DNA of 64,000 bases from a virus (IMGVR_UViG_3300025133_000085:6438-70437); one strand, 5' to 3'. Shown: positions 2,966-58,202, numbered from the stretch's first letter. Translations and numbers: made by a program. Notes: generated by a model not told the origin, from the letters alone.

Positions 2966-3367
2966 CTACCAGTAAGACTGGGCAATACCATACGACCCAG
3001 CGACCCCACCCACGGAGTCGAACCAATCGTTGAGGAAGCCTTCGCCGATACCAGCATCCCCTACCATCGTGACTTGGACCCAGTCTGTCTCGCCGGGCAT
3101 ACCCCACTCTCCCTGGAGGTCCTCAAGCGTGGCGTCTGTATCTTCCCAACTACCGGTCTCTTCGGACACACGCAGACCCTCTCGTCCCGCAGCGCTACTT
3201 AAGTCTGCTAGAAGTCGACCTGGAACGACAAGGCCCCACGTAACTTCCCCCGGACCCGCACGTTCCCGCAAGCGACGTCGCCTTCGCGAGGTGGGTCGGC
3301 GCCGACGCTTGGTGCGGTTGATCTCTTCCTTGATGATCCTCCTAAGCTGTCGTCTTGTGATTCTCAT
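2966..3367 (-). CDS. family-A leader protein with Arg-rich tract (putative internal head protein)
   Basis: Starts MRITRRQLRRIIKEE; RRRRPTSRRRRRLRE tract; acidic C-terminal domain. Confidence 0.7.
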   Translation of the reverse strand: MRITRRQLRRIIKEEINRTKRRRRPTSRRRRRLRERAGPGEVTWGLVVPGRLLADLSSAAGREGLRVSEETGSWEDTDATLEDLQGEWGMPGETDWVQVTMVGDAGIGEGFLNDWFDSVGGVAGSYGIAQSYW

Positions 3368-3436
3368 GATGTCTATCTCCTAACGTGTTTATAAATATAC
3401 TGATTCTATCAATAAAACTGGGCAATGTCATACCCA
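3335..3436 (-). repeat. copy 1 of a ~100-bp duplicated unit (gene-tail relic + TANTTAT + RBS + leader codons)
   Basis: Closely similar to 4598-4705, e.g. TAT[AT]..TTATAAACACGTTAGGAGA...ATGAGAATCACAAGACGACAGCTTAG. Confidence 0.7.
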
Positions 3437-3466
3437 CCTGTCTTTGGCTCCGTTACCGGTCGAGTG

Positions 3467-3799
3467 TTATGCGTAGTCTCCGTTAATCAACTTATCGGTG
3501 AATTCCTGCATCGTCTGCAACGCTAGCTTTCGGATCCTTACGGTTAGCTCCACTTCCATGTCCATCGATGCGGATTCGACCTGTTCTTCCCAAAACGCTT
3601 TTGCCTCAGCGGTGGGTGTGTCATCGGGTGCCATGGACGGATCACCTGTGTCGAATGCTTTCTCCTCCTGGTCCCTCCATTCATCGACTAGCGTCCCAAC
3701 ATTTGTCCAATCCACTCGAGGCCAATGATGAGTGTTGCTGTCAACAGATTCAACCTCTTGCAAGATGATCCTTCTAAGCTGTCGTCTTGTGATTTTCAC
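3467..3799 (-). CDS. family-A leader protein
   Basis: Starts MKITRRQLRRIILQE; acidic body. Confidence 0.7.
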   Translation of the reverse strand: MKITRRQLRRIILQEVESVDSNTHHWPRVDWTNVGTLVDEWRDQEEKAFDTGDPSMAPDDTPTAEAKAFWEEQVESASMDMEVELTVRIRKLALQTMQEFTDKLINGDYA

Positions 3800-4047
3800 T
3801 ATTCCTCTTCAGCCGCATATTGTGCTGCGGCTTGCACCCCTGCAAACATGGCATCAACAAGGTTATAAAGTTCACCCTTAAGCACATCTTCCGGAATATC
3901 ATATCCCATGTTTTCATCAAGTATCATGATATATTCCTCCAACGCATCGTTGAGACGCTCTTCAGCACCCTGCAACGAACCTTCGCTTAGAAGCTTTCGC
4001 TTCTCTTCTTTGATAATTCTTCTAAGCTGTCGTCTGGTGATTCTCAT
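3799..4047 (-). CDS. family-A leader protein
   Basis: Starts MRITRRQLRRIIKEEKRKLLSE. Confidence 0.7.
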   Translation of the reverse strand: MRITRRQLRRIIKEEKRKLLSEGSLQGAEERLNDALEEYIMILDENMGYDIPEDVLKGELYNLVDAMFAGVQAAAQYAAEEE

Positions 4048-4100
4048 GTTGTCTGTTTCTTATGACCTATAAATACATTGCTCGACTTAATCGTCTCTGG

Positions 4101-4337
4101 CTATGTGACCCAGGGAGAGGTGCTCGGTGCGGAGTCTTCCACGTCGTCGGCCAACGAGCGAAGTTCGTTCGCCAGCTCGAGGGTGTCGATACCCTGGGTG
4201 AGCATTTGATCGATGACGCGGTTGAGGACGAGCCACAGGTTCTCACCAGTCTTGGGATCGCGGAAGCCGTCGGTCTCTCGAAGCTTTTGCTTCTCTTCCT
4301 TGACGATTCTTCTGAGTTGGCGCTTTGTAATTCTCAC
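4101..4337 (-). CDS. family-A leader protein
   Basis: GTG start at 4337 (GTGA overlap with upstream stop); MRITKRQLRRIVKEEKQKLRE. Confidence 0.7.
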   Translation of the reverse strand: MRITKRQLRRIVKEEKQKLRETDGFRDPKTGENLWLVLNRVIDQMLTQGIDTLELANELRSLADDVEDSAPSTSPWVT

Positions 4338-4633
4338 TCTGCGTATTCTCCCGTATACACAATCCAACTCTCCTCATCATAACTTTGTTCAGCGGTCCAG
4401 GTCACATCGTCAGGTAAACTAAGCACGTCTGCTTCTTCATTTGACAAATAAATTATCTTCTGCCCTTGGTTGTCGTGCTCGATACCCAGACCGTTTTGAT
4501 TTGCCCAGGCCTCAGGAGTTATATGGGGGCTCTCTCGAAGCCGACGGCGGCTGGATCTGCGGCGCCTAGAGGTTCGAGTTCTTTTCATCTCTTCTTTGAT
4601 GATCCTTCTAAGCTGTCGTCTTGTGATTCTCAT
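4334..4633 (-). CDS. family-A leader protein with Arg-rich tract
   Basis: MRITRRQLRRIIKEEMKRTRTSRRRRSSRRRLRE. Confidence 0.7.
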   Translation of the reverse strand: MRITRRQLRRIIKEEMKRTRTSRRRRSSRRRLRESPHITPEAWANQNGLGIEHDNQGQKIIYLSNEEADVLSLPDDVTWTAEQSYDEESWIVYTGEYAE

Positions 4634-4705
4634 GCTATTCGTCTCCTAACGTGTTTATAAGTATATTGGTTCTATCGATAAGACTAGGTAATATCATACG
4701 ACCCA
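4598..4705 (-). repeat. copy 2 of the duplicated promoter/leader unit
   Basis: Matches 3335-3436 at nucleotide level. Confidence 0.7.
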
Positions 4706-4774
4706 GCAAGTTCGCCTGGTGCGGTTGAGCTCTTCCTTGACGATTCTTCTAAGCTGTCGCTTTGTGATCTTCAT
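4694..4774 (-). pseudogene. leader-only minigene or internally deleted family-A gene
   Basis: Manual translation MKITKRQLRRIVKEELNRTRRTCWVV*; overlapping frame reads AGSYDIT*SYR*, resembling the tail AGSYGIAQSYW* of 2966-3367. Confidence 0.6.
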
Positions 4775-5244
4775 GTTCCCAAACTTCCCTTTCTATTTAG
4801 CGAGCTCGACACAACAATGCCCGACGGCTCGTGAACTACGTTTCGTCGCTTACGGCCATACCTTGCATCTGCCTCGTCGCTTGCGTTAACTTCTTTAAAC
4901 TGCCCCTTCAAATCTTCGTATTCACCAATAGCAGAACTCACTTCTTCGAAAGTTGGTACACCATCAAACCATAATTTGTAAGCGCTAGAAGGAAAAATGG
5001 AAAACGGTTTGATACGAACCTTGCTGAGGAAGACACCGTAGTTATCATAACTATTGTCTTGATTGTACATCTCATTTCGAAGATCAATTAGTTCGCTATA
5101 CTTGTCCCCCAAACGACGAAGATATTGAAAGTGAGAACCGTATTGGTCCCTTAGTTCCAGCATTCGATCATAAAGTGCTTGTGGCTCTGGTCCCGTTATA
5201 GCTTCCCTGATGATCCTTCTAAGCTGTCGTCTTGTGACCTTCAT
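4771..5244 (-). CDS. family-A leader protein
   Basis: Starts MKVTRRQLRRIIRE. Confidence 0.7.
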   Translation of the reverse strand: MKVTRRQLRRIIREAITGPEPQALYDRMLELRDQYGSHFQYLRRLGDKYSELIDLRNEMYNQDNSYDNYGVFLSKVRIKPFSIFPSSAYKLWFDGVPTFEEVSSAIGEYEDLKGQFKEVNASDEADARYGRKRRNVVHEPSGIVVSSSLNRKGSLGT

Positions 5245-5246
5245 GG

Positions 5247-5528
5247 TTACCGCCTCCTACGACTTCGACGTCCTCGCGAATACCGATCGCCACCACCGGA
5301 GCCATAGCCACCACGCATCGATCCGGTTCCGAAAATGGTCTCGCCCTCACCGCCGGCTTCTAGGTGACCGTACTGGCCTTCGAGGTGTGGAGCAGGTTCG
5401 TTATTACCATCGTCGTCGCTGATCATGAGGTCGCCGTCCCGGTTGCGATAGACATACCGTTCGTACTCGAGTAGAAGCGAAGCCGCTTCCTTGATGACTC
5501 TTCTCAATTGTCGGGTTGTGATCTTCAC
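5247..5528 (-). CDS. family-A leader protein with Gly/Arg-rich tail
   Basis: Starts MKITTRQLRRVIKEAASLLLE; ends SRGRRSRRRR. Confidence 0.7.
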   Translation of the reverse strand: MKITTRQLRRVIKEAASLLLEYERYVYRNRDGDLMISDDDGNNEPAPHLEGQYGHLEAGGEGETIFGTGSMRGGYGSGGGDRYSRGRRSRRRR

Positions 5529-5532
5529 GTTC

Positions 5533-5823
5533 TCACCCTCTACGCGTGTTGCGCTTTACCTCGCGGATCATCCGACGGAGTTGCTTGTACGTGAGACGGC
5601 GGCCTGAACGCCGGCGACTTTCGTGGTGATGATAAGCGACATCGTGTGCATGCTCCTCCTCTTCCCTATCGTCTTCGATATCTTTTTCGAGCGCATCGAT
5701 GTGCCCTTTGTCATCTTCGATGTTCTTTCTAAGGTGCTCGAGTTCTCTGTCGACCGTGTCTTCGGATATTCTGTGCGCTTCCTCGCGGATGATCCGACGA
5801 AGCTGGCGTGGCGTGATTTTCAT
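5533..5823 (-). CDS. family-A leader protein (leader-like motif at both ends)
   Basis: MKITPRQLRRIIREE at the N-terminus and RLTYKQLRRMIRE near the C-terminus. Confidence 0.7.
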   Translation of the reverse strand: MKITPRQLRRIIREEAHRISEDTVDRELEHLRKNIEDDKGHIDALEKDIEDDREEEEHAHDVAYHHHESRRRSGRRLTYKQLRRMIREVKRNTRRG

Positions 5824-6481: not shown

Positions 6482-7000
6482 CTAAACGTTTACTTCGTAT
6501 CGACGAAGATCCGAACCAAAGCCCTGCTTACGCATCACCGTTACAACTCGTAGCTCGTCGTTACCGGGACGCATGTTCAACACCGCGATGACGTTGAGCG
6601 GTGGACCAGACCCGGTCTTACCCACGAATAGAAACTTTTCGCCGTTTGCGAGTTCTCCGTTTGCGAAATCATCGATCGCCAGCCCAAGTCCCGCGTTGAC
6701 GACGTCTAGGATCGACTGTCCTGTAATGCGAAACCCCCCACCTCCCGTTTTCTTGTGGCGACTTTGACGTTCTTTAGAGTGTTGCGTGGCCTGGACATCG
6801 ACGCCAGGAATGTCAACCACGATTTTTAGACGAGGTACCGATACGACCTGCTTCTTTTCACGCGTTCTCCCGTAGTACGAACCGAGGGCTTCCTGCACGA
6901 ACTCCCTCAGGGGTCCCATCTCCAACATATCCAGCGTTCCCGCGGGTACCGGTTCGTCTTGCGTTTGAAGCTTGTCGAAAATCTGGGGTTCTTTTTTCAT
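6482..7000 (-). CDS. hypothetical protein with family-B-like motif; possible RNase-toxin-like fold
   Basis: ATG 7000 overlaps upstream TGA; LREFVQEAL motif; TQHSKER...VVTVMRK pattern. Confidence 0.5.
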   Translation of the reverse strand: MKKEPQIFDKLQTQDEPVPAGTLDMLEMGPLREFVQEALGSYYGRTREKKQVVSVPRLKIVVDIPGVDVQATQHSKERQSRHKKTGGGGFRITGQSILDVVNAGLGLAIDDFANGELANGEKFLFVGKTGSGPPLNVIAVLNMRPGNDELRVVTVMRKQGFGSDLRRYEVNV

Positions 7001-9630
7001 AATCCACTCGAGGTTTCGAGGTCCCACGGACCCCAGTGTTTGTAGTCTAATAGTTTCTTCCGCACCTCGGGCCACGTGTAACGATGTACGTTTTGTCCAC
7101 CCACAGGATCGTAACCACCCCCGCCAAAAGTCTCGCGGTTAATTTGTCCCAATGCGTAATAGACAACTTTGGGCATCCTGAGATCTTTACCGTTTGACTT
7201 GTCGATCACGGTGTCGCCATCCTCGACCCAAGCGTGACCGTACCGAACACCCTCTAAGGGACCCTGGCCACCCACTTCGCCGTGGACGAGAACGATATCG
7301 CAATCGTCGGCACCGAAATTACACTCATCCATCATATACTTGGCGGCAGCTTCGTAACAATCGCCTAACTGTGCGCCCTCTTTAAGCACCGATTCTGTCA
7401 TTCGCGAACTAAAGAGTTTGATGTATGTGTAAAGCTTAGACCTAAATTTCTTAAGCGTAGGACTAGTCGCAGGTAGTTGTTCGAAATAATGTCGTAACGC
7501 ATTGGGTAAGTCGGGATCCGATAAATCCACCTCTCCCCGAATTGCATCGAGCGCGCCCTCCTTTCCGTAAACCGCGATCAATTCCTCGGCACCATCGTGA
7601 GCGTGTGCGTCGATCTCGATGTGGGAATTCAAATAATCCCTAACGTCGCTCGAGTCTTTAGACGGAATCTGCTTCGGGTCGTTTATCATTTCCTCGAATG
7701 CCGCCGTGTCATCGAGTCCCTTATTCAGCGCCTGCTTTTTCATCTGTTGGTAATGCACCAGCTCGTGTCGCACGGTCTGCGTGATGTGTCTTACGAGCGC
7801 AGCGGGATCCAAGTCGTTCGGATCGAATTCATCACCTAGTGGCATCGTTTGTAAGTCTATCACGTTTCGACCCGGGTCTTGCTTCGAAACGTACCACCGC
7901 GCATCGATTAACCACCTGTTAGGATAAGCTGGGTGATTTGGGTTTAGCGTATAGGCCGGGTCGTCGGATTCAAAAGAACTCACGTAAACGTCCATGTCTA
8001 ATCCGAGTTCGGCAAATACACCACCCAATGCGAATTCCAAAGTCGCCGCGGCGGGAGTTTGTAATGATTCACCATCGCCTTGAATGTCGATATCATCGTA
8101 GTCGTTTGACTCCTCCCAAAACCTAGATTCCTCCACGGCTCCATCGATTTTCTCGAAATACTCGTCGGGTAAGACCGTCGCCTCGCCTAAGAGCACTCTC
8201 TGCACATACTCTTTCATTAGCTCCACGTCGAGAACGCCCGACGTATCGCCCAAGATCCATTCCCGCGAGAAATCATCGATGTCGGTAATGTCTATTATGA
8301 ACGTATCACGTGATAGCGTGCCAAGATATTCTTGGTAAGCCTTGTCTATTTTTCTCAACGTCACGGGATCCAGATGGCGCGCCAGTGTTGGATGCATGTC
8401 CATCCGATTCAGGATTGGGTATTCCTCGAGCTCGTCCCAAGAGTGAGTCGTGTCATCCTTACCCGCCTGATACATCGCGTACAATCCATCAACCGCGCCC
8501 AGGGCGCCACCGACGATCGGGATCTCGCCCATCGCTACCTTCGCAAACTCTACGCCAACGTTTTTGATTCGAGTAGCCAAACCCCCTCTATCCGTTTCGT
8601 CCTGGAGCCTCTGGATCAAATCGAGAACCTGTCCCACGGTTTTCAAATGGCGAGGGTGACGTTCGTTTTCTGGTGATATGTCCTCGAATTCCCTAAGAAG
8701 TCTGCCCTCGTCCAGCCACGCATCTCGCTTACGCATCGTCGCGTACAGCTCTTCATTCCATGGACCCTCGCCACCATACTTGGCGCAATTATTTAGAACC
8801 TCTTCTGCGGTGTATTCATTTTGGGGATCGGGTTGATACATGTCGTAGTAGAACTCGCGGGCGATTCCATCCGGCTTGGTATACTTGGTCTGATCGTCGA
8901 AGACCAGATCGCCCATCTCGACCCACCCGTGCACGATTGGCTTGGGGGGATCCTTCCACTTGTCCGTCACGATACCGTGGACAACCTTGAACTTGCTCTT
9001 ATCGTTTAGATCCGGGTGTCTCTTGGGACGGCGACCCGGACCACCCTTTGTGAAATGTGCCTCGAACCACTCCTCAGCTTTTTGATACGCGAAAGGAAAG
9101 CACCTACCCAAAGCGAGCACGTTCTCTTCCACCAAAAGCTCCCGTACGTACTCACGAAGTGATCCTTCGTTCATGGACTTTTCCTCGATGGGTTTCGCGA
9201 GGTGCTTTTGAAGGTGTGCCATCAGCTCATTGTGATCCGCGGGCGGTGCGTCGTAACGAGCTTCGTACTCTTGGCTATGAATGTCTGCCGCACTCGTCTC
9301 CCCCTTTTGCTTGAGCAAATTGTAACCTAACCAATCGGCTTCGCGCTCTATGGCTTCATCTCGGGCTGCATGAGCATCGCCGGCATGTCCGGCCATGTAA
9401 TGTCCGGCCTCATGTGCTTGGATCACTAGAAGGTGGTCTGGAGTGAACCATGACTGACCGACTGCGCCTCCATCCACAACCATCATGTTATGATCGTGTA
9501 GAAGAAACGCATGACCCGATTTCTCAAACTGCTTCGAAAGAAGGGCGTAACGCTCGGACTCCGGGTAAATGATTACGACGGTAAGCTCGGGAAGTATCTC
9601 GCTTTGGTATACTTGTTCAGAGTCGCTCAC
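6997..9630 (-). CDS. multidomain polyprotein: two HExxH zincin-like and two Cys-His-Asp (transglutaminase/papain-like) domains separated by family-B motifs
   Basis: AHEAGH; GRCF..VVHG..HGWVE..VFD; RHELVH..EIDA; GDCY..LVHG..HAWVE..VID; internal SLREYVRELLVEE and LMKEYVQRVLLGE; GTG 9630 has a GAGGTG RBS. Confidence 0.7.
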   Translation of the reverse strand: MSDSEQVYQSEILPELTVVIIYPESERYALLSKQFEKSGHAFLLHDHNMMVVDGGAVGQSWFTPDHLLVIQAHEAGHYMAGHAGDAHAARDEAIEREADWLGYNLLKQKGETSAADIHSQEYEARYDAPPADHNELMAHLQKHLAKPIEEKSMNEGSLREYVRELLVEENVLALGRCFPFAYQKAEEWFEAHFTKGGPGRRPKRHPDLNDKSKFKVVHGIVTDKWKDPPKPIVHGWVEMGDLVFDDQTKYTKPDGIAREFYYDMYQPDPQNEYTAEEVLNNCAKYGGEGPWNEELYATMRKRDAWLDEGRLLREFEDISPENERHPRHLKTVGQVLDLIQRLQDETDRGGLATRIKNVGVEFAKVAMGEIPIVGGALGAVDGLYAMYQAGKDDTTHSWDELEEYPILNRMDMHPTLARHLDPVTLRKIDKAYQEYLGTLSRDTFIIDITDIDDFSREWILGDTSGVLDVELMKEYVQRVLLGEATVLPDEYFEKIDGAVEESRFWEESNDYDDIDIQGDGESLQTPAAATLEFALGGVFAELGLDMDVYVSSFESDDPAYTLNPNHPAYPNRWLIDARWYVSKQDPGRNVIDLQTMPLGDEFDPNDLDPAALVRHITQTVRHELVHYQQMKKQALNKGLDDTAAFEEMINDPKQIPSKDSSDVRDYLNSHIEIDAHAHDGAEELIAVYGKEGALDAIRGEVDLSDPDLPNALRHYFEQLPATSPTLKKFRSKLYTYIKLFSSRMTESVLKEGAQLGDCYEAAAKYMMDECNFGADDCDIVLVHGEVGGQGPLEGVRYGHAWVEDGDTVIDKSNGKDLRMPKVVYYALGQINRETFGGGGYDPVGGQNVHRYTWPEVRKKLLDYKHWGPWDLETSSGL

Positions 9631-9679
9631 CTGACACCTCACTTAAAACGTCTCTTATGTATTGTCGCAAGATACCCAT
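9617..9679 (-). CDS. family-B leader-only minigene, out of frame with the downstream polyprotein
   Basis: Manual translation MGILRQYIRDVLSEVSGERL*; TGATG coupling to the upstream gene. Confidence 0.55.
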   Translation of the reverse strand: MGILRQYIRDVLSEVSGERL

Positions 9680-10278
9680 CACACGGTTCCTACCAACGTC
9701 TTTAGGTGAGTCGCACCATCGCCGTACTGTCGTTTGTACCAGCCTCTACCTTCGCTTCCCGGACGCTCACCGACCCACTCCAGATCCCGCTGGACCAACC
9801 CCCTCACTTTCGCTTCGTCTTCTATGATGGTCACGCCTGCGGCCATGGCTATCTGCGCGATGCGACCCGATACCTCGGCAAACGTGCCGGGTCGTTTTAG
9901 AAGTTCGATAAAACGGGAAACGCTCACGCGTTTGCCTGCGCCACCATCGTGACCCAACCCTCCGACTTTGAGGGCGCCGCCCCGGGTCTTTCCGAAAACC
10001 ACAGCATCCGGTTCCGGGTCGGCATCGATATCGACGGCATCGAAGAAAGTGTACTTTCCAGGAATATCTTGGGCCGATTGTATCTTTACGTTACCACCCG
10101 GGAGACTGGCGTATGCGGTGGTCACCAAGTCGAAGACTTCATCGTCCAAACCAGTTTCCTGGGATCGCATCGCTAGGTCTTCGGGCGATACGTCAACCCA
10201 CTGCCCCTTTGGCACACCAAAGTCGGCGAAAGTCTTTTCGGCCAACAGCCGTCTTATGTACTCACGTAGAAGATTCAT
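9679..10278 (-). CDS. family-B leader protein, unknown function
   Basis: Starts MNLLREYIRRLLAE; ATGA overlap. Confidence 0.75.
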   Translation of the reverse strand: MNLLREYIRRLLAEKTFADFGVPKGQWVDVSPEDLAMRSQETGLDDEVFDLVTTAYASLPGGNVKIQSAQDIPGKYTFFDAVDIDADPEPDAVVFGKTRGGALKVGGLGHDGGAGKRVSVSRFIELLKRPGTFAEVSGRIAQIAMAAGVTIIEDEAKVRGLVQRDLEWVGERPGSEGRGWYKRQYGDGATHLKTLVGTV

Positions 10279-11129
10279 TCTGGACTCCATAACACTTTGC
10301 GTCTCGCATCATAAATTGGAACGCCAAAAGCCATGGCGACTCTAAACATCTCTTTTGTCACGCCGACGGATCTCCCGCCTGGGGGAGACCAGGTCGCGGC
10401 GTGCCTCACAGACTTTGCGAGATCGACCAAGGCTATGACTCCGACGGCCTTCCAGTTATCTACCAACGCTTCGTTAACGACGACCCCACCCTCGGGCGGT
10501 TTCCACGTCGATTGATCGAGAACGTAAGGGATGTTTCTTGCCATCTTCTCACCAAACTCAGTATCAGGTTTAAGATTCCCGTACCTGCTATAATCCTTTG
10601 AGATCGTGGGAAGCTTGTTAACGCCCGAAGATCTTGCCCTACGCTCCTGCCCTTCTCCCTCCTCACCGGTAGCGCCCATATAATCCCCCCACTTCCCAGT
10701 GTATATCTCATCTTGGTTGTTAGCCGCCAGCGAAATATGCCCTTTTACCCAAAGCCCCGCGGGAAACCCCACGATGCTCCTCAACCTCTCGTCAGGTAAA
10801 CTCATGGTCGTTGAAAGCTCGTCCTTTCCCCTACCGATGAGATCACTCAGCGCGTAGGGATCTTGGACCCAATGCACCGTATCAAGCGTCGATAACCACT
10901 GATGATCTGCGTTTGCATTGAAGGCACGCTTTATCGCTTTGCCCCCGCCCTTACCGGGATCGCCGCCGAAAAACATTCCCCCCTCTTCGCCGAACTCACC
11001 CGACGTCGCCGCGAGATCCTGAACGAATCCCATGGGGTCTTCAGTCAACAACCGTCTTATGTACTCGCGGAGAAGCACATCCTCCGAATACCCTTTTTTA
11101 CCTTCATAAACGGTTTCGGCATCACTCAC
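10275..11129 (-). CDS. family-B leader protein, unknown function
   Basis: VLLREYIRRLLTE near the N-terminus (alternative GTG start at 11078). Confidence 0.7.
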   Translation of the reverse strand: MSDAETVYEGKKGYSEDVLLREYIRRLLTEDPMGFVQDLAATSGEFGEEGGMFFGGDPGKGGGKAIKRAFNANADHQWLSTLDTVHWVQDPYALSDLIGRGKDELSTTMSLPDERLRSIVGFPAGLWVKGHISLAANNQDEIYTGKWGDYMGATGEEGEGQERRARSSGVNKLPTISKDYSRYGNLKPDTEFGEKMARNIPYVLDQSTWKPPEGGVVVNEALVDNWKAVGVIALVDLAKSVRHAATWSPPGGRSVGVTKEMFRVAMAFGVPIYDARRKVLWSPE

Positions 11130-11816
11130 TTAACACCCCCCAGGCGATGTCGACGGAGAGCACCGCACCCATCTACCTACCTTCTTGAGGGCTTCTATCT
11201 TGGGAGTGCCTTTCGATCGATACATTTTCGTACGTGGGCTCTTCAATAGAGCTTCCTTACCTCGTGGATCCCACGCAAATCCGCCACCGTAGCGCCAATA
11301 CAAACCGTCACGGTCATCCATGTACGCATTCTTTTGATCACAGTTGTCTGACGGTTCACCGGGGGTGAGACGATCATCCGAATCGTCAAGCTGAATGATC
11401 TCTACATCCGGGCGACGATTTGCGTAATATTTCCACACACGGAACGCATCATCAGAAACGCTGAGCCTATCGGCCATGATACCCGAACCCTTGCTTGTCG
11501 CTAGTTCCATAGCAAGATCATAGAGGAGTGGCCCATAACCCGAGGCCTCCTCGGCATTTGACCATACCACCTCATATGCATCCAAACATCCCAGCCCTCG
11601 ACTGGCGGGGGGGTTTTCAGCGGCAATTACACCAATTGAAGAATAGGGCAAACGAGCTTTCCCGAGGGCGGGACGAGGGTCATTTTTATATAGCTTTATC
11701 TCAAACGAGGACGCGTCCTCGGAGACCACAACGTAATACCTAGCTTTCAGGACATCTTCTACGCCCATAGCCCTTTCGGTAAGGAGCTCTCTTATGTACT
11801 CGCGTAGAAGATTCAT
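11130..11816 (-). CDS. family-B leader protein, GNAT-like fold
   Basis: MNLLREYIRELLTE; GYGPLLYDLAME..ADR..VS.DA..VW; paralog of 12505-13170. Confidence 0.65.
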   Translation of the reverse strand: MNLLREYIRELLTERAMGVEDVLKARYYVVVSEDASSFEIKLYKNDPRPALGKARLPYSSIGVIAAENPPASRGLGCLDAYEVVWSNAEEASGYGPLLYDLAMELATSKGSGIMADRLSVSDDAFRVWKYYANRRPDVEIIQLDDSDDRLTPGEPSDNCDQKNAYMDDRDGLYWRYGGGFAWDPRGKEALLKSPRTKMYRSKGTPKIEALKKVGRWVRCSPSTSPGGC

Positions 11817-12508
11817 TTCTTAAGCCTCTCAATATCTTGCTTTCTAGCGTTAACCTGAACTGCGGTGACGGTGCAATCTCCAAAAAGCAATATCTCTCTT
11901 TCAGATCCTCCTTGAGGGTTTAGCTTTCTAATATCGAATTCGTCACGATACCTGCCACCCTTAAATCTAGCAAATGAATATGTGTACATGAAATAACCGG
12001 AATCGCAATCAGAATGTAATATCACTGGAACTGTGTCTGACGACCACTGCGTAGTAAAGCGCCTTGCGGCCTTCCAACTGTTTGTCCACGAACTAACGTT
12101 TCCGAATTTACCTTCTGACTTATATGTCATAGGCGTTATTGGCACAGGTGGTCCCCAGTCTAGTATGTCCTTGAACTCAGTCGGTAAATTCTCTAAAGCT
12201 TCCGGTGCATATTTTTCTAGCCAGGAAACTGGAAGCCTCATTCCCCTGAGGATCGGGCCAGACTTACATGGAGAAAATACATCTGAATATTGTCCTGAGT
12301 CTAAAATCTGTTGCAACGCAGATATCGCGGAGGTGCTCAATGGGGCTATGGCGCCAAAGTGATTATGAAGTTGTCGATACAACATTTCTTCTATGTCTGT
12401 GTCTGGCTCTTTGGGCCACGTATCTCCAGCAGCAGTAGGCCACACCCACTTGCCGAGCACATCCTCTTCATTCAATATTCCTCTTATGTATTCGCGAAGC
12501 AACCTCAT
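11813..12508 (-). CDS. family-B leader protein, putative ADP-ribosyltransferase
   Basis: MRLLREYIRGILNEE; ILRGM...VSSWT...A..F...EREIL match the R-S-E ART motifs. Confidence 0.6.
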   Translation of the reverse strand: MRLLREYIRGILNEEDVLGKWVWPTAAGDTWPKEPDTDIEEMLYRQLHNHFGAIAPLSTSAISALQQILDSGQYSDVFSPCKSGPILRGMRLPVSWLEKYAPEALENLPTEFKDILDWGPPVPITPMTYKSEGKFGNVSSWTNSWKAARRFTTQWSSDTVPVILHSDCDSGYFMYTYSFARFKGGRYRDEFDIRKLNPQGGSEREILLFGDCTVTAVQVNARKQDIERLKK

Positions 12509-13170
12509 AACTTCACCAACTTTCCAAGTGACTTCAGTTTTTCGATCGTGGTCGGTGGTTTCGTGTATCGTTTACTCAACGCAGAATCAACCCAATTCAC
12601 GTCCACCTTCCCACTCGCATCATATTTGTATGGTTCGTATGGTCGACGCGCTACTTTTTGATCACAGTTGTCTTCCTCCTGTGGGGTAAGCGTGTTTCCT
12701 AAGTCATCCAGTTGATGTGCTGTAACATCGCTTCGATTGTTAAGATAATAATCCCAAACTCGACGAGCATCCGCGGAGACGATGCTTCTGTCTGCAATCA
12801 AACCGCCCCCTTTCATCGTTGCGTACTCCATCGCAACATCGTATAACAACGGTCCCCAACCACTGGGATGTGCTTCGGACCCTATCACAACACCGGCTCC
12901 GTCACACTTGCCTAGGTCACCCATCCCTCCATATGTCCCACCTCCTATTGCTTCATAGGGACCGATCCAGCCAACCTCAACATTACCGTGCATACCAACG
13001 GGGTAGTAAGGATCGCCGGCCATCACCGTCGGGTCATCTGTGATACCGTAATAGGTGTAAAACCCTTCCCCACTCGTCTGTATGACGACGTTCACCTCAT
13101 CTGGTAAGTCTTGTGGTCCTTTGGCGACCTCGGTTAACAACCGTCTTATGTATTCACGGAGAAGTTTCAT
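12505..13170 (-). CDS. family-B leader protein, GNAT-like fold
   Basis: MKLLREYIRRLLTE; GWGPLLYDVAME..ADR..VSADA..VW..QLDD..LTP..DNCDQ. Confidence 0.65.
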   Translation of the reverse strand: MKLLREYIRRLLTEVAKGPQDLPDEVNVVIQTSGEGFYTYYGITDDPTVMAGDPYYPVGMHGNVEVGWIGPYEAIGGGTYGGMGDLGKCDGAGVVIGSEAHPSGWGPLLYDVAMEYATMKGGGLIADRSIVSADARRVWDYYLNNRSDVTAHQLDDLGNTLTPQEEDNCDQKVARRPYEPYKYDASGKVDVNWVDSALSKRYTKPPTTIEKLKSLGKLVKL

Positions 13171-13544
13171 GCTTCGAATCGATCCACGACCAAGGGCGTG
13201 AGCTTTTTGCGAACCGGGCGAATCGATGAAGCAAGGTCTTCCAGAGACTCTCCATCCAAAACATGTTGGTGCCAACCCCTAATGACGCCAGGAATTTTTA
13301 CTATGAACGGATACCGACTCTCCTTGTCCAGCGATATCGCTTCCTCGGCAAGGGCCTCGCACTTCATTAGGTGCTTATTGATGCAATCATGACATTGCAT
13401 GTCCGGTTGATTTAGGTGGTCCTCGAGGAGAGTAAACTCCTTGCACATCTCCCTCATGTTGAAGAGGGGATCCATTATCGGTTGCATGGCCGTTTCTTCG
13501 CCACATTCCAGCAACACTCTTATGTACTCACGTAACAACCTCAT
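13167..13544 (-). CDS. family-B leader protein with CxxC/His motif
   Basis: MRLLREYIRVLLE; LLEDHL...CHDCINKH. Confidence 0.65.
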   Translation of the reverse strand: MRLLREYIRVLLECGEETAMQPIMDPLFNMREMCKEFTLLEDHLNQPDMQCHDCINKHLMKCEALAEEAISLDKESRYPFIVKIPGVIRGWHQHVLDGESLEDLASSIRPVRKKLTPLVVDRFEA

Positions 13545-14242
13545 AACCCCATTCCTTCAAGTTGCTTAATCGTCCCATCGCTATCACCTGGTAGATGATG
13601 GATCGCGATTCCACCTGCAGCTCGCCAAGCAGCCACATTCTTCGTGTGGTCGTCGATGAGTAAGTTGGGAACGCCTCCGCGCATCGCGTATCGCGCTTTT
13701 TTGTCTGCCGAACTTCCATCAACGTCGGCCTGGACCACGATTATTTCTGATGGTGGTGGGGAAAGGTGCGTGCCGATCCATTCGATCTTACCGTCCTTAG
13801 ACGTCGAGCCCGCGCCCGGACGCGCTCTCACCGCCGCAGTTAGAATGTTGACGACGTGATCCGTAGAATTTATGAATGGCCAAAGTTGGCCGACGCCATC
13901 AGCCAAAGCCGGTAGGTTCGCAAACGCCGGACCAGGGGCGGCGCCAATCGTCGAAAGCATCAACGATCGAATCGACCGTATGTTTATGTCATTTTTTGTT
14001 CGGGCGCGGAAATCCGGTCCCACTTCTCTCTGCGCTTTGCGCAACCTCTTGCGGTGACCCTTCGTCGCCTCGGAGTAGGGAGGCTCACCACCCGCGAGCA
14101 TGTCGTTAATGATGGGGATGATGCCTGCGACGAAGTCCGCGATGACTCCATCCATGTCGCAAAATATCTGCGCGTTAGGTTGGAGGACCGGCGCGTCCTC
14201 TGCTTCTAATACTTCCCTGATATATGTCCTTAAAGTCGTCAT
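13541..14242 (-). CDS. HAD 5'(3')-deoxyribonucleotidase (NT5C-like) with family-B leader
   Basis: MTTLRTYIREVLEAE; IFCDMDGVIADF, ILTA, LLIDD..N..W...GG. Confidence 0.75.
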   Translation of the reverse strand: MTTLRTYIREVLEAEDAPVLQPNAQIFCDMDGVIADFVAGIIPIINDMLAGGEPPYSEATKGHRKRLRKAQREVGPDFRARTKNDINIRSIRSLMLSTIGAAPGPAFANLPALADGVGQLWPFINSTDHVVNILTAAVRARPGAGSTSKDGKIEWIGTHLSPPPSEIIVVQADVDGSSADKKARYAMRGGVPNLLIDDHTKNVAAWRAAGGIAIHHLPGDSDGTIKQLEGMGL

Positions 14243-15147
14243 CTCAAAACCTCCTCGATATACCCCTTTAATTGTATCGAACCGGATTCGATTGTTTCGA
14301 AATCCCATAGTTCGAAGTAGTTCGACATTACTGCTTCTCCACCGTCCGGGTTCACCGCAATGGTTATATGAGGAAAGGCCGGTCCATTCATTGGTATAGG
14401 TAGTCCACCCATGTCGACCAATCCCGTTACAACCTTATCATTTCTAGCGATCGCCACGACGCTCATCCTACCTGCGTCGTCGGAGAAGTCGAGCCAGTGC
14501 AAAGGTAACCGTCGCTTTTGCTCGGGCGGACTGATCAATGTCATGTGATGTGCTTTGGGCGTCCATCCCGGAGGTGCGTACTCCAATAAAGCATCGCGAA
14601 CGCTCGCGTCGAGGATGAAAGCAGTGTACTCGATCCCCTCGACGACGCCGAGATCAGCTTCAACCAAAAGTCTTCTTACGTAGCGCCTTAGAAAAGACTC
14701 ATTCTGGCTGGCGCCCCCCACCGCCCGACCAATGGCTTCCAGCGCCCCGACGTCTGACATTTGGTGACTCTCACCACACGTAGCCAGTTCGGCGCCCTGA
14801 ATCTGTTCGCTGTCCCGAAACGGAACTATATCATCGGTGGCGCAGTGTATAACGATAGTGTTGGGAGGAACAGAAGGCTGAAGACCGAAGTGCTTCCAGG
14901 CCGGAGCGATTAAGATTAGGCGAGCCCCTCTAGGGTTGAGCGCCATGGCCACCGCGCCACCCCGACTGGATCCGACGACGATATCCGGACTCTCCAGGTC
15001 GACCTCGTCCTGCGCTATTTGGACGGAGGCCTCGAAGTCGTCCCGTGGAAGGAGCGGGTTGAGAACAGTGTATCCTAAGCTTCGAAGGTACAATACCTTA
15101 GACCCGCCAGGTTTCGATTCCAAACCGTGTAAGAACAAAATCTTCAT
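14239..15147 (-). CDS. alpha/beta hydrolase (YqiA-like) fused to a 2H phosphoesterase via an internal family-B motif
   Basis: FLHGLES, GSSRGG nucleophile elbow; FLRRYVRRLLVE; HHMTL and PHITI (two HxT motifs). Confidence 0.7.
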   Translation of the reverse strand: MKILFLHGLESKPGGSKVLYLRSLGYTVLNPLLPRDDFEASVQIAQDEVDLESPDIVVGSSRGGAVAMALNPRGARLILIAPAWKHFGLQPSVPPNTIVIHCATDDIVPFRDSEQIQGAELATCGESHQMSDVGALEAIGRAVGGASQNESFLRRYVRRLLVEADLGVVEGIEYTAFILDASVRDALLEYAPPGWTPKAHHMTLISPPEQKRRLPLHWLDFSDDAGRMSVVAIARNDKVVTGLVDMGGLPIPMNGPAFPHITIAVNPDGGEAVMSNYFELWDFETIESGSIQLKGYIEEVLR

Positions 15148-15203
15148 TATAACTCGACACCTTCGCAAAGAGTGGCGCTTATGTATTGCCGCAAGCGTTT
15201 CAT
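15147..15203 (-). CDS. family-B leader-only minigene
   Basis: Manual translation MKRLRQYISATLCEGVEL*; TAATG overlaps on both sides. Confidence 0.55.
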   Translation of the reverse strand: MKRLRQYISATLCEGVEL

Positions 15204-16318
15204 TAGAAGTTCCTCGCTCCTACCACGCTAACATTGGGATATTTCTCGGCCATCTTATCTTTTAGGTGACCGACTTCCTTTCGCATCATCTTACCAAAGT
15301 GAATCGTAACCCCGGGCTTGGCGTGTCGATTGAAAAACTCATCTACCAGTTGGCTCGCGTATCCCTTGCCTCGCATATCCCCGCGGGTTTTCAAATAATC
15401 GATGTACCAATAATCATCGCCCGCCGTATGATAATCCAAGAATCCCACGACACAGATGTCAGCAACGCCTGGAATAATCTCGTCGAGTACTTTCTTCTTT
15501 AGCATCCGACCGGTCTTTGACCGTCTGCGCCACCTTTCAATTTCTGCGAAATATGTGTCATGCTTACGTGCTGGTTCGGTTACGTTGCTATCACATAATG
15601 CCAGTCGTTTAATATTACCTGCGCGACTATACTGCAATGGAGAATCGACCTCCCGGAATTCGACGCCCTCGTGGAGAACGCCTCTCACAAATCTACGTAG
15701 GTTTTCTTCCACGTCGCCGAGCTCTCTTGCAAGTTTCATCTGTATTTCCATTTCCTTCTCTGTAGCCCTACCACTCTCACCCCAATCCGGCATATCGGAA
15801 TCAAGGCATGCCTGGGAATCGATTTCGTAATCTGCCCCCTTTTTCAGAAAACTCAATGCCCTGATATGATCCTTGCCGTCGCCTTTTCCCCTAACCGCCT
15901 TCAGGGAAATGCCCGCATCAGAGGCAACCTGACACGCTTGTCGCAAAGGCACGATATTATCGCCATCCGAGTGAACCGCCTTGCTTCCCGCTGGTAGATC
16001 TGGTACGGGCGCGGACGTCCATTTTCTCAGTGATGCTGGGGAGATGTACGTAACCGGAGGCACTTCGTCCGCGATACCAGGCTCGTCGGATAGCATTTGG
16101 TTCAAAACGGCGGCGCCTCTACTAAAAGCAACGAGTTCATTCGGTTCCTCGTCCTCGAGCCACTCGATCGCTGCTTCGATGTCCTCTGGCGTAACGTTTT
16201 CTTTGTCGCTAAACTTCGGTCCTCGTAACCCTATCTTGTCCGGACCGAACTTGTACCCATGAAACGCATGCGTCTCTTCGTTAATAACTTGCCTTACAAA
16301 CTTTCGTAAACCTTTCAT
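15203..16318 (-). CDS. alpha/beta hydrolase-like + GNAT acetyltransferase, each preceded by a family-B motif
   Basis: MKGLRKFVRQVINEE; AFHG, AFSRGA, DNIVP, DH; NLRRFVRGVLHE; MRGKGYASQLV (acetyl-CoA motif A). Confidence 0.7.
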   Translation of the reverse strand: MKGLRKFVRQVINEETHAFHGYKFGPDKIGLRGPKFSDKENVTPEDIEAAIEWLEDEEPNELVAFSRGAAVLNQMLSDEPGIADEVPPVTYISPASLRKWTSAPVPDLPAGSKAVHSDGDNIVPLRQACQVASDAGISLKAVRGKGDGKDHIRALSFLKKGADYEIDSQACLDSDMPDWGESGRATEKEMEIQMKLARELGDVEENLRRFVRGVLHEGVEFREVDSPLQYSRAGNIKRLALCDSNVTEPARKHDTYFAEIERWRRRSKTGRMLKKKVLDEIIPGVADICVVGFLDYHTAGDDYWYIDYLKTRGDMRGKGYASQLVDEFFNRHAKPGVTIHFGKMMRKEVGHLKDKMAEKYPNVSVVGARNF

Positions 16319-16328
16319 CGGTCGTCCC

Positions 16329-17018
16329 CTAAGCGAAACTGTGTCCGGTCCACTTTTCGTAAACCTCTCTGGCTTCATCATCCGAGATTGCGCCGACTTT
16401 TTTATAATTGTCTAGATAATACGTGATGAGCTCCGCCACGGGCACGCCCGAATGATTCGACTCTGCCCGAAAACCGATTACGAATGCGGGTACCTCGCAC
16501 GCGGATATGAAGTAGTCGCGATACGAATCGCTCTCCCTCTCAGGTAAAAAAGGACAGTCAGGTCGCTTAAGGGGTCCCTCCTGCGTGAGATGGTGAATCT
16601 CATGGGCAAGTGTCCCCCTTAACTCGCTGACGATTGCGTTGTAGTGATCGTTTATGTCGACGCCCCTCTCGTACTCGATCCGGATCTCGATGTTCGCGAT
16701 CAAGTCGGTTTCACCCGCGTTACCGGCGACGTTCGTCGGCGCAGACATGTCGTCCTCGGGATAAACCGAAAGATCTATGACAAAGTAATCCGACGAATAT
16801 GAATCGAACTCTTCGGGATCCACCGGATATGGCCAGCGAAAATCAAACTCCGCGTGTCTCTTTTCACCACCACGAGCGTCGAAAATAAAATCGACTAGTT
16901 GCGCTTCTATAGGCAATACCAAGTCCTGGTAAAAGAATTCTTCGTTGGCTAACTCGATGCCTTCTCTAAGTTTTCGTTTAAGCCCATAGATAATTGGTGG
17001 GTATTTTCTTGGTAACAT
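16329..17018 (-). CDS. zincin-like metallopeptidase domain protein
   Basis: LAHEIHH...EVPA; LKRKLRE N-terminal motif; TATTTAT upstream. Confidence 0.6.
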   Translation of the reverse strand: MLPRKYPPIIYGLKRKLREGIELANEEFFYQDLVLPIEAQLVDFIFDARGGEKRHAEFDFRWPYPVDPEEFDSYSSDYFVIDLSVYPEDDMSAPTNVAGNAGETDLIANIEIRIEYERGVDINDHYNAIVSELRGTLAHEIHHLTQEGPLKRPDCPFLPERESDSYRDYFISACEVPAFVIGFRAESNHSGVPVAELITYYLDNYKKVGAISDDEAREVYEKWTGHSFA

Positions 17019-17062
17019 ACTAGTCCTCGAAGATAAATATTACTATAAAGACGGAGAAACAA

Positions 17063-17485
17063 ATGGGAATTCATTGGGCCGAACCTGGATGGAAGGCTGT
17101 GGGAGAATATCAGGTTTCTGGGATCCCTTACGTTACGTCGAGCGTTCTTGCGGATCAAGAAACTCGAGCTATCGAATTTCCTCGAGTTACTCGTTTCATC
17201 ATTGTTAGAAACGCAAATACCGGTACGTCGCTAAATTCCGCGATCGCGGTTGGTTTTACCGAAAACGGCGTAAAGGCCAATCCCGTGTCGCAAACGAACT
17301 ATCTTACGCTTAACGGTGGGGAAAGTTTGTCGGCGGATCTTAGGATCAAAAGTCTGTTTCTAAGCAACAGCCTAGGCTCTGACAATTCTCTGGCCGAGTT
17401 CGAGGTACTCGCCGGACTAACCGACATCAGTCGAGAAAAGGTGTTCCCAATCACGGGCTCAAGTGGTTACCAGGGCGTGGGCTAA
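17063..17485 (+). CDS. probable virion structural protein (beta-rich)
   Basis: GGAG RBS; beta-sandwich-like composition; coupled to the LamG gene. Confidence 0.55.
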   Translation: MGIHWAEPGWKAVGEYQVSGIPYVTSSVLADQETRAIEFPRVTRFIIVRNANTGTSLNSAIAVGFTENGVKANPVSQTNYLTLNGGESLSADLRIKSLFLSNSLGSDNSLAEFEVLAGLTDISREKVFPITGSSGYQGVG

Positions 17486-26890: not shown

Positions 26891-27205
26891 ATGTTCTTTC
26901 TTTTGTTACTGTGCTTATTTTCGTGTCATACCCCAGAAGACGCGCAGGAATTCTTAGAAACGAAAGCAGAGTTCGAAAACAACTGGTGGGAAAGCGATAG
27001 CTGGGGTGTATGTCTTTTGGTCGACCCGAGTGTAGAAATGGTCGTTTTTGATGATGGAGATGATAAGGAATTTTATCCCTATGAGTTTGAAGCGCCCAAC
27101 ATTTATCATCTAGAAGAGTACACGGCCAAGGTGTTTCCCAACGAGTGGTGTTGGGACATCGTCGTGGGTTTGGCACACGAGACGATTTGCGAGTGCACGC
27201 TTTAG
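26891..27205 (+). CDS. putative lipoprotein
   Basis: AGGAGG RBS; MFFLLLLCLFSC lipobox-like signal; TAATTAT at 26869-26875. Confidence 0.6.
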   Translation: MFFLLLLCLFSCHTPEDAQEFLETKAEFENNWWESDSWGVCLLVDPSVEMVVFDDGDDKEFYPYEFEAPNIYHLEEYTAKVFPNEWCWDIVVGLAHETICECTL

Positions 27206-27816
27206 TTGTTTCCCAAAAGTATTTTCTTTAGTGTTCTTTTACCCCTCGCAGATTCACCTACCACGATGGGCGTGTCTTGCGCTGCGACTGCGCGGGGCTT
27301 CTTGTCCTTTGCGACCAGCGTTTTGGTCTCGCTACCGGTTCGCTTGAGCGTCATCTCAATACCATACGGACTCTGTCCCGGTTCCTCGACCTTTTGCGCA
27401 TCCTCGCCACCCGAAATTATCTCTGCGAATGCTTCGAGATAAGCGAGTAGTGCAAGTTTTTCGGCGTCCGTGAGATCGTTAAAGTACGTTTCGAGTTGTG
27501 TACCAATCTCGGCATCGTCGAGTGATTTTCCGCTGCGCACGACGTTAAGCTTATCCTTCACCACGTTATACGTCGGAACAGCAGCAAGCTTTTCCGTCGT
27601 TACGGGTTCCTCGACCTTGGCTTCGGTATCCTCCTCGACTTCGATCTCTTCCTCTTCTTTCACTTGCGCCTCTTGCTTCTTGCGACGTAATCGAAATGGT
27701 TCCTGTCGCTTCGCGGCACGATCCTGTCTAAGCTCTTCGTTTTCTCGCACAAGGTGCTTCTTAAGCAAGCGAAGTTGTCTGGGGTTTATTTTTCTTCTCA
27801 TTTCTTTTTTGCCCAA
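27202..27816 (-). CDS. hypothetical protein with family-A-like N-terminus
   Basis: KINPRQLRLLKKHLVRE; acidic middle. Confidence 0.6.
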   Translation of the reverse strand: MGKKEMRRKINPRQLRLLKKHLVRENEELRQDRAAKRQEPFRLRRKKQEAQVKEEEEIEVEEDTEAKVEEPVTTEKLAAVPTYNVVKDKLNVVRSGKSLDDAEIGTQLETYFNDLTDAEKLALLAYLEAFAEIISGGEDAQKVEEPGQSPYGIEMTLKRTGSETKTLVAKDKKPRAVAAQDTPIVVGESARGKRTLKKILLGNN

Positions 27817-28357: not shown

Positions 28358-28695
28358 TCAAGATCCAGATCGGTAACCATATTGAGGTCCTTCGTCTGTA
28401 ACACGACGAAGACGTCAGTATCACTGACGTTATAGTCTACGTGATGACCCGAAGAGTTTTCGAGCTCCATGATGTCCAACACGAACGCATTTCTGGACCG
28501 TACGTTCGGAAAGGTAAACTGTCTTTCAAGTTTTTTTCCACACGGACTTAAGGCCCAGTCCGAAGATACGGGACTTACGGGAAACTCGTTATACGAATCC
28601 AAGTGCATCTCGCGTAGCGGTGGCAAAAAATCGTACCTCGACCGATCGCTATCTTGCAGGTATTCGTCCATGATTTCGCTAATCTTCCTTCGCAT
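28303..28695 (-). CDS. pterin-4-alpha-carbinolamine dehydratase-like protein
   Basis: W...KLERQFTF...FV..I.ELE...HH.D...L.T.D...VTDLD. Confidence 0.65.
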   Translation of the reverse strand: MRRKISEIMDEYLQDSDRSRYDFLPPLREMHLDSYNEFPVSPVSSDWALSPCGKKLERQFTFPNVRSRNAFVLDIMELENSSGHHVDYNVSDTDVFVVLQTKDLNMVTDLDLECSKRLSDCAVDVRHSRL

Positions 28696-58013: not shown

Positions 58014-58202
58014 CTAGTAGTTAGTAGTATAAGATCTTAGAAAATTCAAGACCCACGTTTCCCCTAAACTATTCATCGCAAGTTCGATGGCATCCGCAAG
58101 CGCCGTCTGGTGATGTGTTACCTCTGCTTCCCACTCGTCGGTATGGATCTCGTTCAGGTTTCTCTTGATTATCTTGTTAAGCTGTCTCTTCGTGATTTTC
58201 AT
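58014..58202 (-). CDS. family-A leader protein (distant copy)
   Basis: Starts MKITKRQLNKIIKRNLNE. Confidence 0.65.
   Translation of the reverse strand: MKITKRQLNKIIKRNLNEIHTDEWEAEVTHHQTALADAIELAMNSLGETWVLNFLRSYTTNY

Follow-up and report, generated by a model that had tools for sequence, protein, structure and literature searches.

In bacteriophage T4, the conserved capsid-targeting sequence (CTS) is carried by diverse internal proteins and by the ADP-ribosyltransferase (ART) Alt (PMC3012670, PMC9026906). The CTS is a 10-residue N-terminal propeptide in which residues 4 and 7 act in targeting and residues 8 and 10 in processing; the protease gp21 cleaves after L/I-X-E, the first 10 residues of internal protein III (IPIII) are enough for encapsidation, and Asp at position 10 stops processing (PMC9026906). 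Alt itself is a CTS-bearing, gp21-processed and injected ART (PMC5512222, PMC9026906), and in the giant phage SPN3US the N-terminal 15 residues are the same in the paralogs gp53 and gp54, a likeness to the CTS being drawn by the authors of that study (PMC5694885). Here, a block of genes at positions 6482-17018 (array B) is described in a 64,000-nucleotide stretch of viral DNA (IMGVR_UViG_3300025133_000085:6438-70437; the window), in which otherwise dissimilar proteins carry a shared 14-residue leader, the tag. The reading favoured here, with moderate confidence, is that the tag is a T4-CTS-like signal for capsid targeting and processing on an arsenal of injected enzymes.

A shared leader on dissimilar cargos

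The core pattern [LM][RK]x[YF][IV][RQ] has 14 matches in the six-frame translation of the window. These all fall on the minus strand, within 6910-16309, and leader copies are present nowhere else in the six frames. The strict back-translated pattern L-L-R-E-Y-I-R-x-L-L-x-E has 4 matches in the window against 0.00 expected from 100 shuffles. The leader forms the first residues of seven genes, with ATG codons at 16318, 14242, 13544, 13170, 12508, 11816 and 10278, and internal copies give core matches at 15700, 14691, 9159 and 8217; the first gene of the block, encoding a zincin at 16329-17018, is without a proper leader. An earlier reading of the DNA, made from the sequence alone, had described a shared M-x-L-L-R-E-Y-I-R-x-L-L-x-E leader or looser variants of it on mostly start/stop-coupled genes, and both features are borne out, as all 14 copies lie inside the block and its junctions include six ATGA overlaps and one TGATG. 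That reading counted eleven consecutive genes; the tagged run stands, but the ORF listing of the window contains 12 minus-strand open reading frames (ORFs) within 6482-17018.

Pooling of the IMG/VR loci, the window and the complete relative G001 gave 137 distinct leader instances, 99 N-terminal and 38 internal, the latter including a few truly N-terminal ones with unusual offsets. Among the 99 N-terminal instances, the consensus is M (90), N or K (44 and 34), L (85), L (95), R (98), E (87), Y (96), I (94), R (92), E (55), L (80), L (86), any residue, and E (84); the final E is at +9, with the two L residues at +6 and +7 and L or I at both positions before the E. The consensus tag M-[N/K]-L-L-R-E-Y-I-R-E-L-L-x-E is a 14-residue amphipathic helix with hydrophobic residues at positions 3, 4, 7, 8, 11 and 12 and charges between them. 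Internal copies have E at the position of the start Met in 23 of 38 cases and a hydrophobic residue two places earlier (M in 11, V in 5, L in 5), and together with the terminal L/I-x-E this means that internal tags are bracketed by two (hydrophobic)-x-E motifs.

Codon usage within the leader is biased: the first Arg is CGY in 104 of 137 instances, Tyr is TAC in 96 of 129, Ile is ATA in 103 of 117 and AGA or AGG is used for the second Arg in 111 of 137, where genome-wide usage is 19-37% ATA among Ile codons and 16-52% AGA among Arg codons. At the conserved Leu residues (all six codons) and Glu residues (both codons) codon choice is free, indicating that the peptide itself is under selection. 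The TAC-ATA-AGA of the leader holds TAA in the +1 frame.

The window makes up most of a 70,437-bp IMG/VR virus record that is estimated to be 21% complete, and it encodes a DnaE-type polymerase, GroEL, ribonucleotide reductase, DnaB and RecA. GenBank phages include no near relative of the window and no near-identical DNA. A degenerate back-translated pattern of the tag matched 72 times on 27 IMG/VR contigs (20-293 kb), the matches grouping into 34 stretches that usually hold 2-5 each. Across the replication region the window and G001 are syntenic, their DnaE polymerases sharing 58% identity; some but not all of the window's cargos have a homolog in G001, where their order is not that of the window. 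The source is an uncultivated jumbo phage, and the tag is a clade-wide feature. Contigs of metagenome-assembled genomes (MAGs) with several tag matches (L058, L060, L061, L063, L064 and L071) are assigned to unrelated taxa, and one such MAG contig and one IMG/VR viral contig are both 101,404 bp long. The tag-bearing MAG contigs look like phage contigs binned into MAGs, and owing to this apparent binning they give no reliable clue to the host.

The cargos vary behind the tag. Once the tag was removed, 131 distinct tagged segments fell into 45 BLAST clusters. Pfam matches among these segments include GNAT families, RNase_T, DUF192, phosphatidylserine decarboxylase, Zeta toxin, P-loop kinases, trypsin-like peptidase, NT5C/HAD, serine hydrolase and, in one of the 131, ART-PolyVal (E 9.1e-4); among 10 long tagged singletons, chosen by length from the 131, eight match no Pfam family. 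The order of cassettes is different in every non-identical locus. In the largest family, that of the gene at 11130-11816, there are 136 homologs, and the tag comes first in all but one of the best 120 of the 136; alignment A2 holds 21 of 23 cluster members, two truncated ones having been dropped.

The tag lies outside the enzyme domains. Complete Pfam domains start past it in two cases: RNase_T occupies residues 37-252 in one, and Zeta_toxin/AAA_33 starts at residue 19 in the other. AlphaFold2 (AF2) models of two window proteins have the tag as a helix, predicted with lower confidence, in front of the domain. For the protein encoded at 11130-11816, residues 1-10 have an average predicted local distance difference test (pLDDT) score of 47, and for that encoded at 11813-12508 the tag helix at residues 2-12 has a pLDDT of 56-60, with prediction remaining poor up to about residue 35. 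Structural neighbours of the two models span the body only, covering residues 16-206 for the GNAT fold and about 75-224 for the ART fold. The possibility that the leader is part of the enzyme fold, which the sequence-only reading had named as fatal to its proposal, is ruled out by these lower-confidence helices and by the Pfam boundaries. The variation of cargo behind a constant leader, which it had proposed as a comparative check, is seen in the 45 clusters and in an order that is not invariant between loci.

Head machinery, cleavage motif and upstream element

A protease of the Peptidase_S77 family, that of T4 gp21, scores above the curated cut-off in all five of the largest tag-bearing relatives (255-293 kb, three of the five being rated 92-100% complete); the scan covered these five of the 27 contigs. 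G001 possesses a T4-type head module with Portal_T4, S77 and two Gp23-type capsid genes. In G001, G003 and G005 the protease gene is immediately followed by genes for two small proteins that start with the A-type leader, a second leader class that is described below. The last seven residues of the tag, when aligned by eye with the T4 CTS as printed in PMC8442874, share with it the pattern hydrophobic-x-E-hydrophobic-hydrophobic-x-E.

Proteins exposed to a Glu-specific protease should avoid its motif in their body, and the cargo bodies were examined on this rationale. The motif [LI]xE is present in them at 0.83 of the shuffle expectation (z -3.0), compared with 1.17 in long ORFs of these phages other than the cargos, and the motif [LI]xD at 1.39, compared with 1.10 in other ORFs. 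When each cluster was reduced to one random representative, three draws gave 0.70-0.86 for [LI]xE (z -2.8 to -1.4) and 1.39-1.47 for [LI]xD. A predicted complex between residues 1-40 of the A2 leader protein and the putative scaffold of G001 scored 0.00, which provides no answer and speaks neither for nor against binding.

A candidate promoter, the upstream element ATATTTAT, lies at 17033-17040 (-), with 14 nt between it and the start of the block's first gene. The TATTTAT heptamer that the sequence-only reading placed at the head of the block is present there, at 17033-17039 (-), but it is not enriched, with 7 occurrences in the window against 7.2 expected; it was rejected as an enriched heptamer and a positional test of ATATTTAY was made in its place. 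Of the 45 ATATTTAY sites in G001, 12 are followed by an ORF at a distance of 8-45 nt, whereas random placement gives a mean of 1.5 and none of 2000 draws reaches 12; permuted octamers have 0-4 sites before ORFs. Among the G001 genes that follow the element are those for the portal, a putative scaffold and the tail sheath (phrog_23), the leader-bearing gene that heads the B array, and three giant ORFs; the 12 ORFs were all scanned for domains, one of them over the first 859 of its 1463 residues. Two of the four ATATTTAY sites in the window are so placed, at 17040 (the head of array B) and at 3398 (an array-A gene), as are 15 of 28 in other loci, several of these before leader genes. This suggests that the arrays are co-regulated with virion genes. 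Simple scans for sigma-70 promoters and for terminators gave results at chance level.

The A-type leader, M-K-I-T-K-R-Q-L-R-R-I-I-K-E, is present in the window on small proteins encoded at 2966-5823 (-), referred to as array A. It has 14 residues, with the hydrophobic spacing and the final E of the B leader. G001 contains it 19 times, including at 47.6-57.8 kb and 285.4-286.3 kb, and the B-type leaders of G001 form a cluster that spans the terminal repeat, at 283.9-293.4 kb and 0.2-3.8 kb. Other leader-like N-termini are also found in the window. A small acidic ORF at 58202-58471 (-), among the replication genes, starts with MNNFDDRTIRRYIRSLLEGD, a B-like leader with the final E one residue early, and the ORFs at 27202-27816 (-) and 28679-29980 (-) start with the leader-like KINPRQLRLLKKHLVRE and RRALDKLVEAVLFE, each followed by long acidic stretches; the latter two may encode head-core or scaffold-type proteins.

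Some further features of the head genes were observed. The Gp23-type major capsid genes of G001 are in tandem, at 176269-178167 and 178261-180150, and are identical over their first 70 residues. Across G001-G005 the capsid-protein N-termini follow M(S)KKF(T/S)LxxLTEGIRQRH, which bears a loose likeness to the A-type leader in its first half. A conserved gene comes after the prohead protease in relatives, immediately so in G001, and its homolog of 34% identity in the window, at 17063-17485 (+), adjoins array B in divergent orientation with 44 nt separating it from the array head.

Genes of the block

The cargo labels given in the sequence-only reading hold with unequal strength. At least two effector-type domains are present in three ORFs of the block (881, 392 and 309 aa), and the other nine have one or none assigned. 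The block opens at 16329-17018 (-) with a zincin-like protein, recognised by an HExxH motif (HEIHH) in its translation and devoid of a canonical leader; it matches Pfam DUF5700, a putative zinc peptidase, under the cut-off (E 0.065). The next gene, 15203-16318 (-), encodes two modules, with a leader at 16277-16318, a serine-hydrolase-like part (Ser_hydrolase E 0.0046, sub-threshold), an internal leader at 15668-15709 and a GNAT. This third GNAT of the block matches Acetyltransf_1 above the cut-off (21.9 bits against 20.7) and shares 58.6% identity with G001 3768-4310.

A second two-module gene at 14239-15168 (-), which likely starts at 15147, combines an alpha/beta-hydrolase-like part (Abhydrolase_6 E 9.2e-5, sub-threshold) with a 2H-phosphoesterase-like part, in which two HxT motifs are kept in an L036 homolog of 44% identity (Pfam E 0.19). 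It has no N-terminal leader, and its internal leader at 14659-14700 directly follows Q-N-E. The gene at 13541-14242 (-), which has an ATGA overlap with the upstream gene, joins a leader at 14201-14242, MTTLRTYIREVLEAE, to a HAD-type 5'-deoxyribonucleotidase (phrog_2643 1.6e-15; NT5C E 0.0024). A leader match at 13503-13544 precedes a small protein without assigned function (13167-13544, -), whose one homolog, L014:10779-11156, is also leader-bearing.

Two GNAT-fold paralogs of 41% identity flank an ART-like gene. Paralog 1, a member of alignment A2, is encoded at 12505-13170 (-) with its leader at 13129-13170, and paralog 2, recognised by its fold neighbours, at 11130-11816 (-) with its leader at 11775-11816. 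Neither has a Pfam match. The AF2 model of paralog 2 has a pLDDT of 78.3, and its top 50 VIA-align rows consist entirely of acyltransferase folds that belong to the GNAT superfamily or lie near it, with Z up to 7.0; Foldseek against the PDB found nothing at E <= 0.001 for this model, the best E being 7e-3. The assignment of both paralogs to GNAT is made at fold level only. The gene between them, 11813-12508 (-), joins a leader at 12467-12508 to a protein that resembles R-S-E type ARTs in its motifs and fold neighbours. The R-S-E motif set is defined by Arg, Ser-x-Ser/Thr and Glu-x-Glu in that order, and RG, SSW-T (SSWT) and ExE columns are conserved in order in the alignment of this protein (A3). 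Its AF2 model has a pLDDT of 76.6, and most of its top 50 VIA-align rows, with Z from 7.0 to 3.6, bear the names of ARTs or related proteins; the best neighbour reaches a Z of only 7.0, with a root-mean-square deviation of 2.7 over 85 residues. The model has no Foldseek match in the PDB at E <= 0.001, and PDB sequence searches with the A2 and A3 profiles gave nothing usable.

Further along the block, the gene at 10275-11129 (-) encodes a conserved 'EDPMGF' protein without assigned function, with a leader at 11040-11081. Its start is ambiguous between the GTG at 11129, which would place the leader after at most 17 residues, and the GTG at 11078, which would place it at the start; it belongs to a cluster of nine tagged homologs and shares 58.8% identity with G001 193-996. 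The gene at 9679-10278 (-), with a leader at 10237-10278, has no assigned function and one tagged homolog in L007. TGATG-coupled to it is an orphan leader stub of 20 codons and a stop at 9617-9679 (-), MGILRQYIRDVLSEVSGERL. The stub region, 9617-9681 (-), contains a complete leader, beginning MGILRQYIRDVLSE, that is out of frame with the 881-aa ORF starting at 9642, which implies a frameshift at about 9620-9642; a frameshift mutation, an error of assembly or a programmed shift could each account for it. The 881-aa ORF itself, 6997-9642 (-), encodes a polyprotein that consists of an M78-like zincin (HEAGH), an internal leader at 9127-9168 after M-N-E, a central domain without assigned function, an internal leader at 8185-8226, a second zincin (HELVH) and a Cys-His domain; its Pfam matches are all sub-threshold (Peptidase_M78 E 0.004, Tox-MPTase3 E 0.095, Transglut_core3 E 0.03). 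The last gene, 6482-7075 (-), has a degenerate leader at 6878-6919, GPLREFVQEALG, which is without the final E, and one homolog in L032.

Readings of the leader and comparison with known systems

If the tag is a capsid-targeting and processing signal, its helix would dock the cargo onto the prohead core during assembly, a gp21-family prohead protease would then remove the tag by cutting after the final Glu, and the mature enzyme would remain in the head and enter the host along with the DNA. In the fused genes, the two (hydrophobic)-x-E sites around an internal tag would allow the same protease to split the polyprotein into enzymes. The sequence-only reading had already proposed a capsid-loading signal for host-takeover or anti-defence enzymes, and it gains circumstantial support from the head machinery, the cleavage motif and its avoidance, the common upstream element, the position of the tag outside the folded domains and the modularity of the cassettes; virion presence, cleavage after E and any anti-defence or takeover role are inferred. 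A more ambitious version, in which A- and B-type leaders are two addresses for plug-and-play loading, so that whatever gene gains the tag has its product packed, trimmed by the prohead protease and injected, the nucleotide core of the tag doubles as a recombination joint for cassette shuffling between phages and the tag marks a whole injected proteome of more than 40 families, many of them enzyme-like, can be put forward only tentatively and appears doubtful.

Several observations weigh against capsid loading. Docking, cleavage after E, packaging, injection and a takeover or anti-defence action in the host would all be steps predicted from sequence. The first gene is untagged, and in another gene the only tag comes after the alpha/beta-hydrolase domain. 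No S77 protease is present in the window's own 70-kb record, which is without head genes because it is a fragment (~21% complete), so that the head machinery is deduced from relatives. The likeness to the T4 CTS is one of pattern rather than demonstrated homology, the tag being 4 residues longer and too short for statistics. The (L/I)-x-E motif is short and common by chance, and its depletion in cargo bodies, consistent in trend, is moderate in strength, with z of -1.4 and -1.7 in two of the three draws. The late timing of the upstream element is assumed. The codons CGY-GAR-TAC-ATA-AGR are kept beyond what the peptide needs, and there is selection at the nucleotide level too, which a protein tag does not explain. 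A tblastn search with a 228-aa cargo found no match in GenBank phages, and so no cultured homolog, and in 596 Gb of prokaryote genomes the tag pattern is present in 15 stretches, with every multi-match stretch on MAG contigs.

Other readings of the tag were weighed. The tag could be a processing or recognition site for the array's own peptidases, which would release or activate the cargos in the cytoplasm or after injection without a prohead protease. The opening of the block with an untagged zincin, the two HExxH domains and the Cys-His domain of the 881-aa ORF, and the match of one tagged cargo in relatives to ART-PolyVal and of another, weakly, to Ploopntkinase3 are in keeping with this, as is the proposal that zincin-like metallopeptidases process polyvalent proteins (Iyer et al., PMC5512222). 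However, most tags are N-terminal on single-domain proteins, which leaves nothing to release, every peptidase assignment is under the Pfam cut-offs, and what flanks the tags is a Glu-specific motif, that of gp21-family proteases. We know of no zincin specificity that matches this motif, and the explanation is considered unlikely. A two-heptad coiled-coil handle, which would bundle the enzymes or dock them on a hub outside the capsid (a host structure, a phage compartment or a chaperone) with no packaging, is given a similarly low probability. It fits the spacing of hydrophobic and charged residues in the tag, the free helix in the AF2 models and the possession by the phage of its own GroEL, but it leaves unexplained the near-invariant final Glu and the E before internal copies, the avoidance of [LI]xE in cargos and the presence of a leader of the same pattern on head-module proteins.

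The codon bias at Ile (ATA), Arg (CGY/AGR) and Tyr (TAC), which exceeds genome usage, and the shuffling of cassette order between relatives would be expected if the repeat were mainly a nucleic-acid element, either a recombination joint through which cassettes are exchanged or an mRNA site near the start codon that controls translation, with the peptide as a passenger. This is very unlikely to be the main role, given that Leu and Glu codons are free at conserved residues and that internal copies keep the peptide pattern with other codons; a nucleic-acid element is probably there in addition to a protein-level function, not in its stead. Inheritance of the tag as the N-terminal segment of an expanded paralog family, with no targeting role, was already disfavoured and is scarcely credible. 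Tag and body do travel together in the largest family (in all but one of the best 120 of 136), but the 45 clusters are without detectable mutual similarity and include complete, widespread Pfam domains past the tag (RNase_T, Zeta_toxin), and the ART fold has no relation to the GNAT fold.

The sequence-only reading knew of no description of such an arsenal. The principle is already established for T4 (PMC3012670, PMC9026906), but this leader, together with the scale on which it is used, its enzyme cargo and the fusion into polyproteins, appears undescribed in the portions of the literature covered. The string 'LLREYIR' was not found in the literature searched, where supplements outside the search may hold closer matches to the CTS of the T4 family, and the leader is unmentioned in the searched portions of the jumbo-phage and polyvalent-protein literature.

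Injected phage proteins are hard to learn without virion proteomics, and metagenomic jumbo phages have no cultures. If the capsid-targeting reading is true, the injected arsenal of this clade (ART, GNATs, nucleotidases, nucleases, kinases and peptidases) would be readable from sequence, and the tag would be a natural portable signal, with built-in release by protease, for loading foreign proteins into large capsids. It would also join the CTS of small T4 internal proteins with polyvalent effectors, which have so far been treated apart, the polyvalent domain repertoire being present here as separately tagged or protease-separable modules.

Encapsulin targeting peptides and the N-terminal packing signals of extracellular contractile injection systems and Photorhabdus virulence cassettes (eCIS/PVC) are alike in that a short transferable peptide loads diverse cargo into a phage-related shell and payload genes are arrayed. 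They are different machines and signals, and encapsulin signals are usually C-terminal and not removed. In phiKZ-like giants (SPN3US, phiKZ and 201phi2-1), a gp21-homologous protease cuts after x-x-E and there are many head-internal proteins, as is expected here, whereas their propeptides are mostly longer than 100 residues and occur in paralog families, the motif is S/A-x-E, and the portion of the account that was consulted describes no single short tag across dozens of unrelated enzymes (PMC5694885). Polyvalent proteins, as described by Iyer et al. 2017 (PMC5512222), have a domain repertoire similar to that seen here, with ART, GNAT, 2H phosphoesterase, zincin peptidases, P-loop kinases and nucleases; both are predicted to be delivered along with the DNA, and three ORFs here are multi-domain. 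The genes here are, however, mostly separate and each with its own tag, rather than parts of one giant polypeptide, and separation is predicted to occur through a prohead protease at the tag rather than through embedded metallopeptidases.

The T4 CTS, present on IPI-III and Alt and removed by gp21, is similar to the tag in several respects. Both are short, conserved N-terminal propeptides on otherwise unrelated proteins and end in (L/I)-x-E, with Y-Q-E-F-I-A-E before the cut in T4 and I-R-E-L-L-x-E here; the clade has a gp21-family protease, to which G001 adds a gp20 portal and a gp23 capsid protein; and in both an ART is among the cargos and the cassettes vary between relatives. The differences lie in length, scale and content. 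The tag has 14 residues rather than the 10 of T4, its role in packaging is a proposed one, and there are ~12-16 B-tagged modules per genome, with ~19 A-type ones in addition in G001, compared with a handful in T4. The cargos here are mostly enzyme-like, whereas those of T4 are small basic proteins, and some are fused into polyproteins in which internal tags are flanked by two cut motifs.

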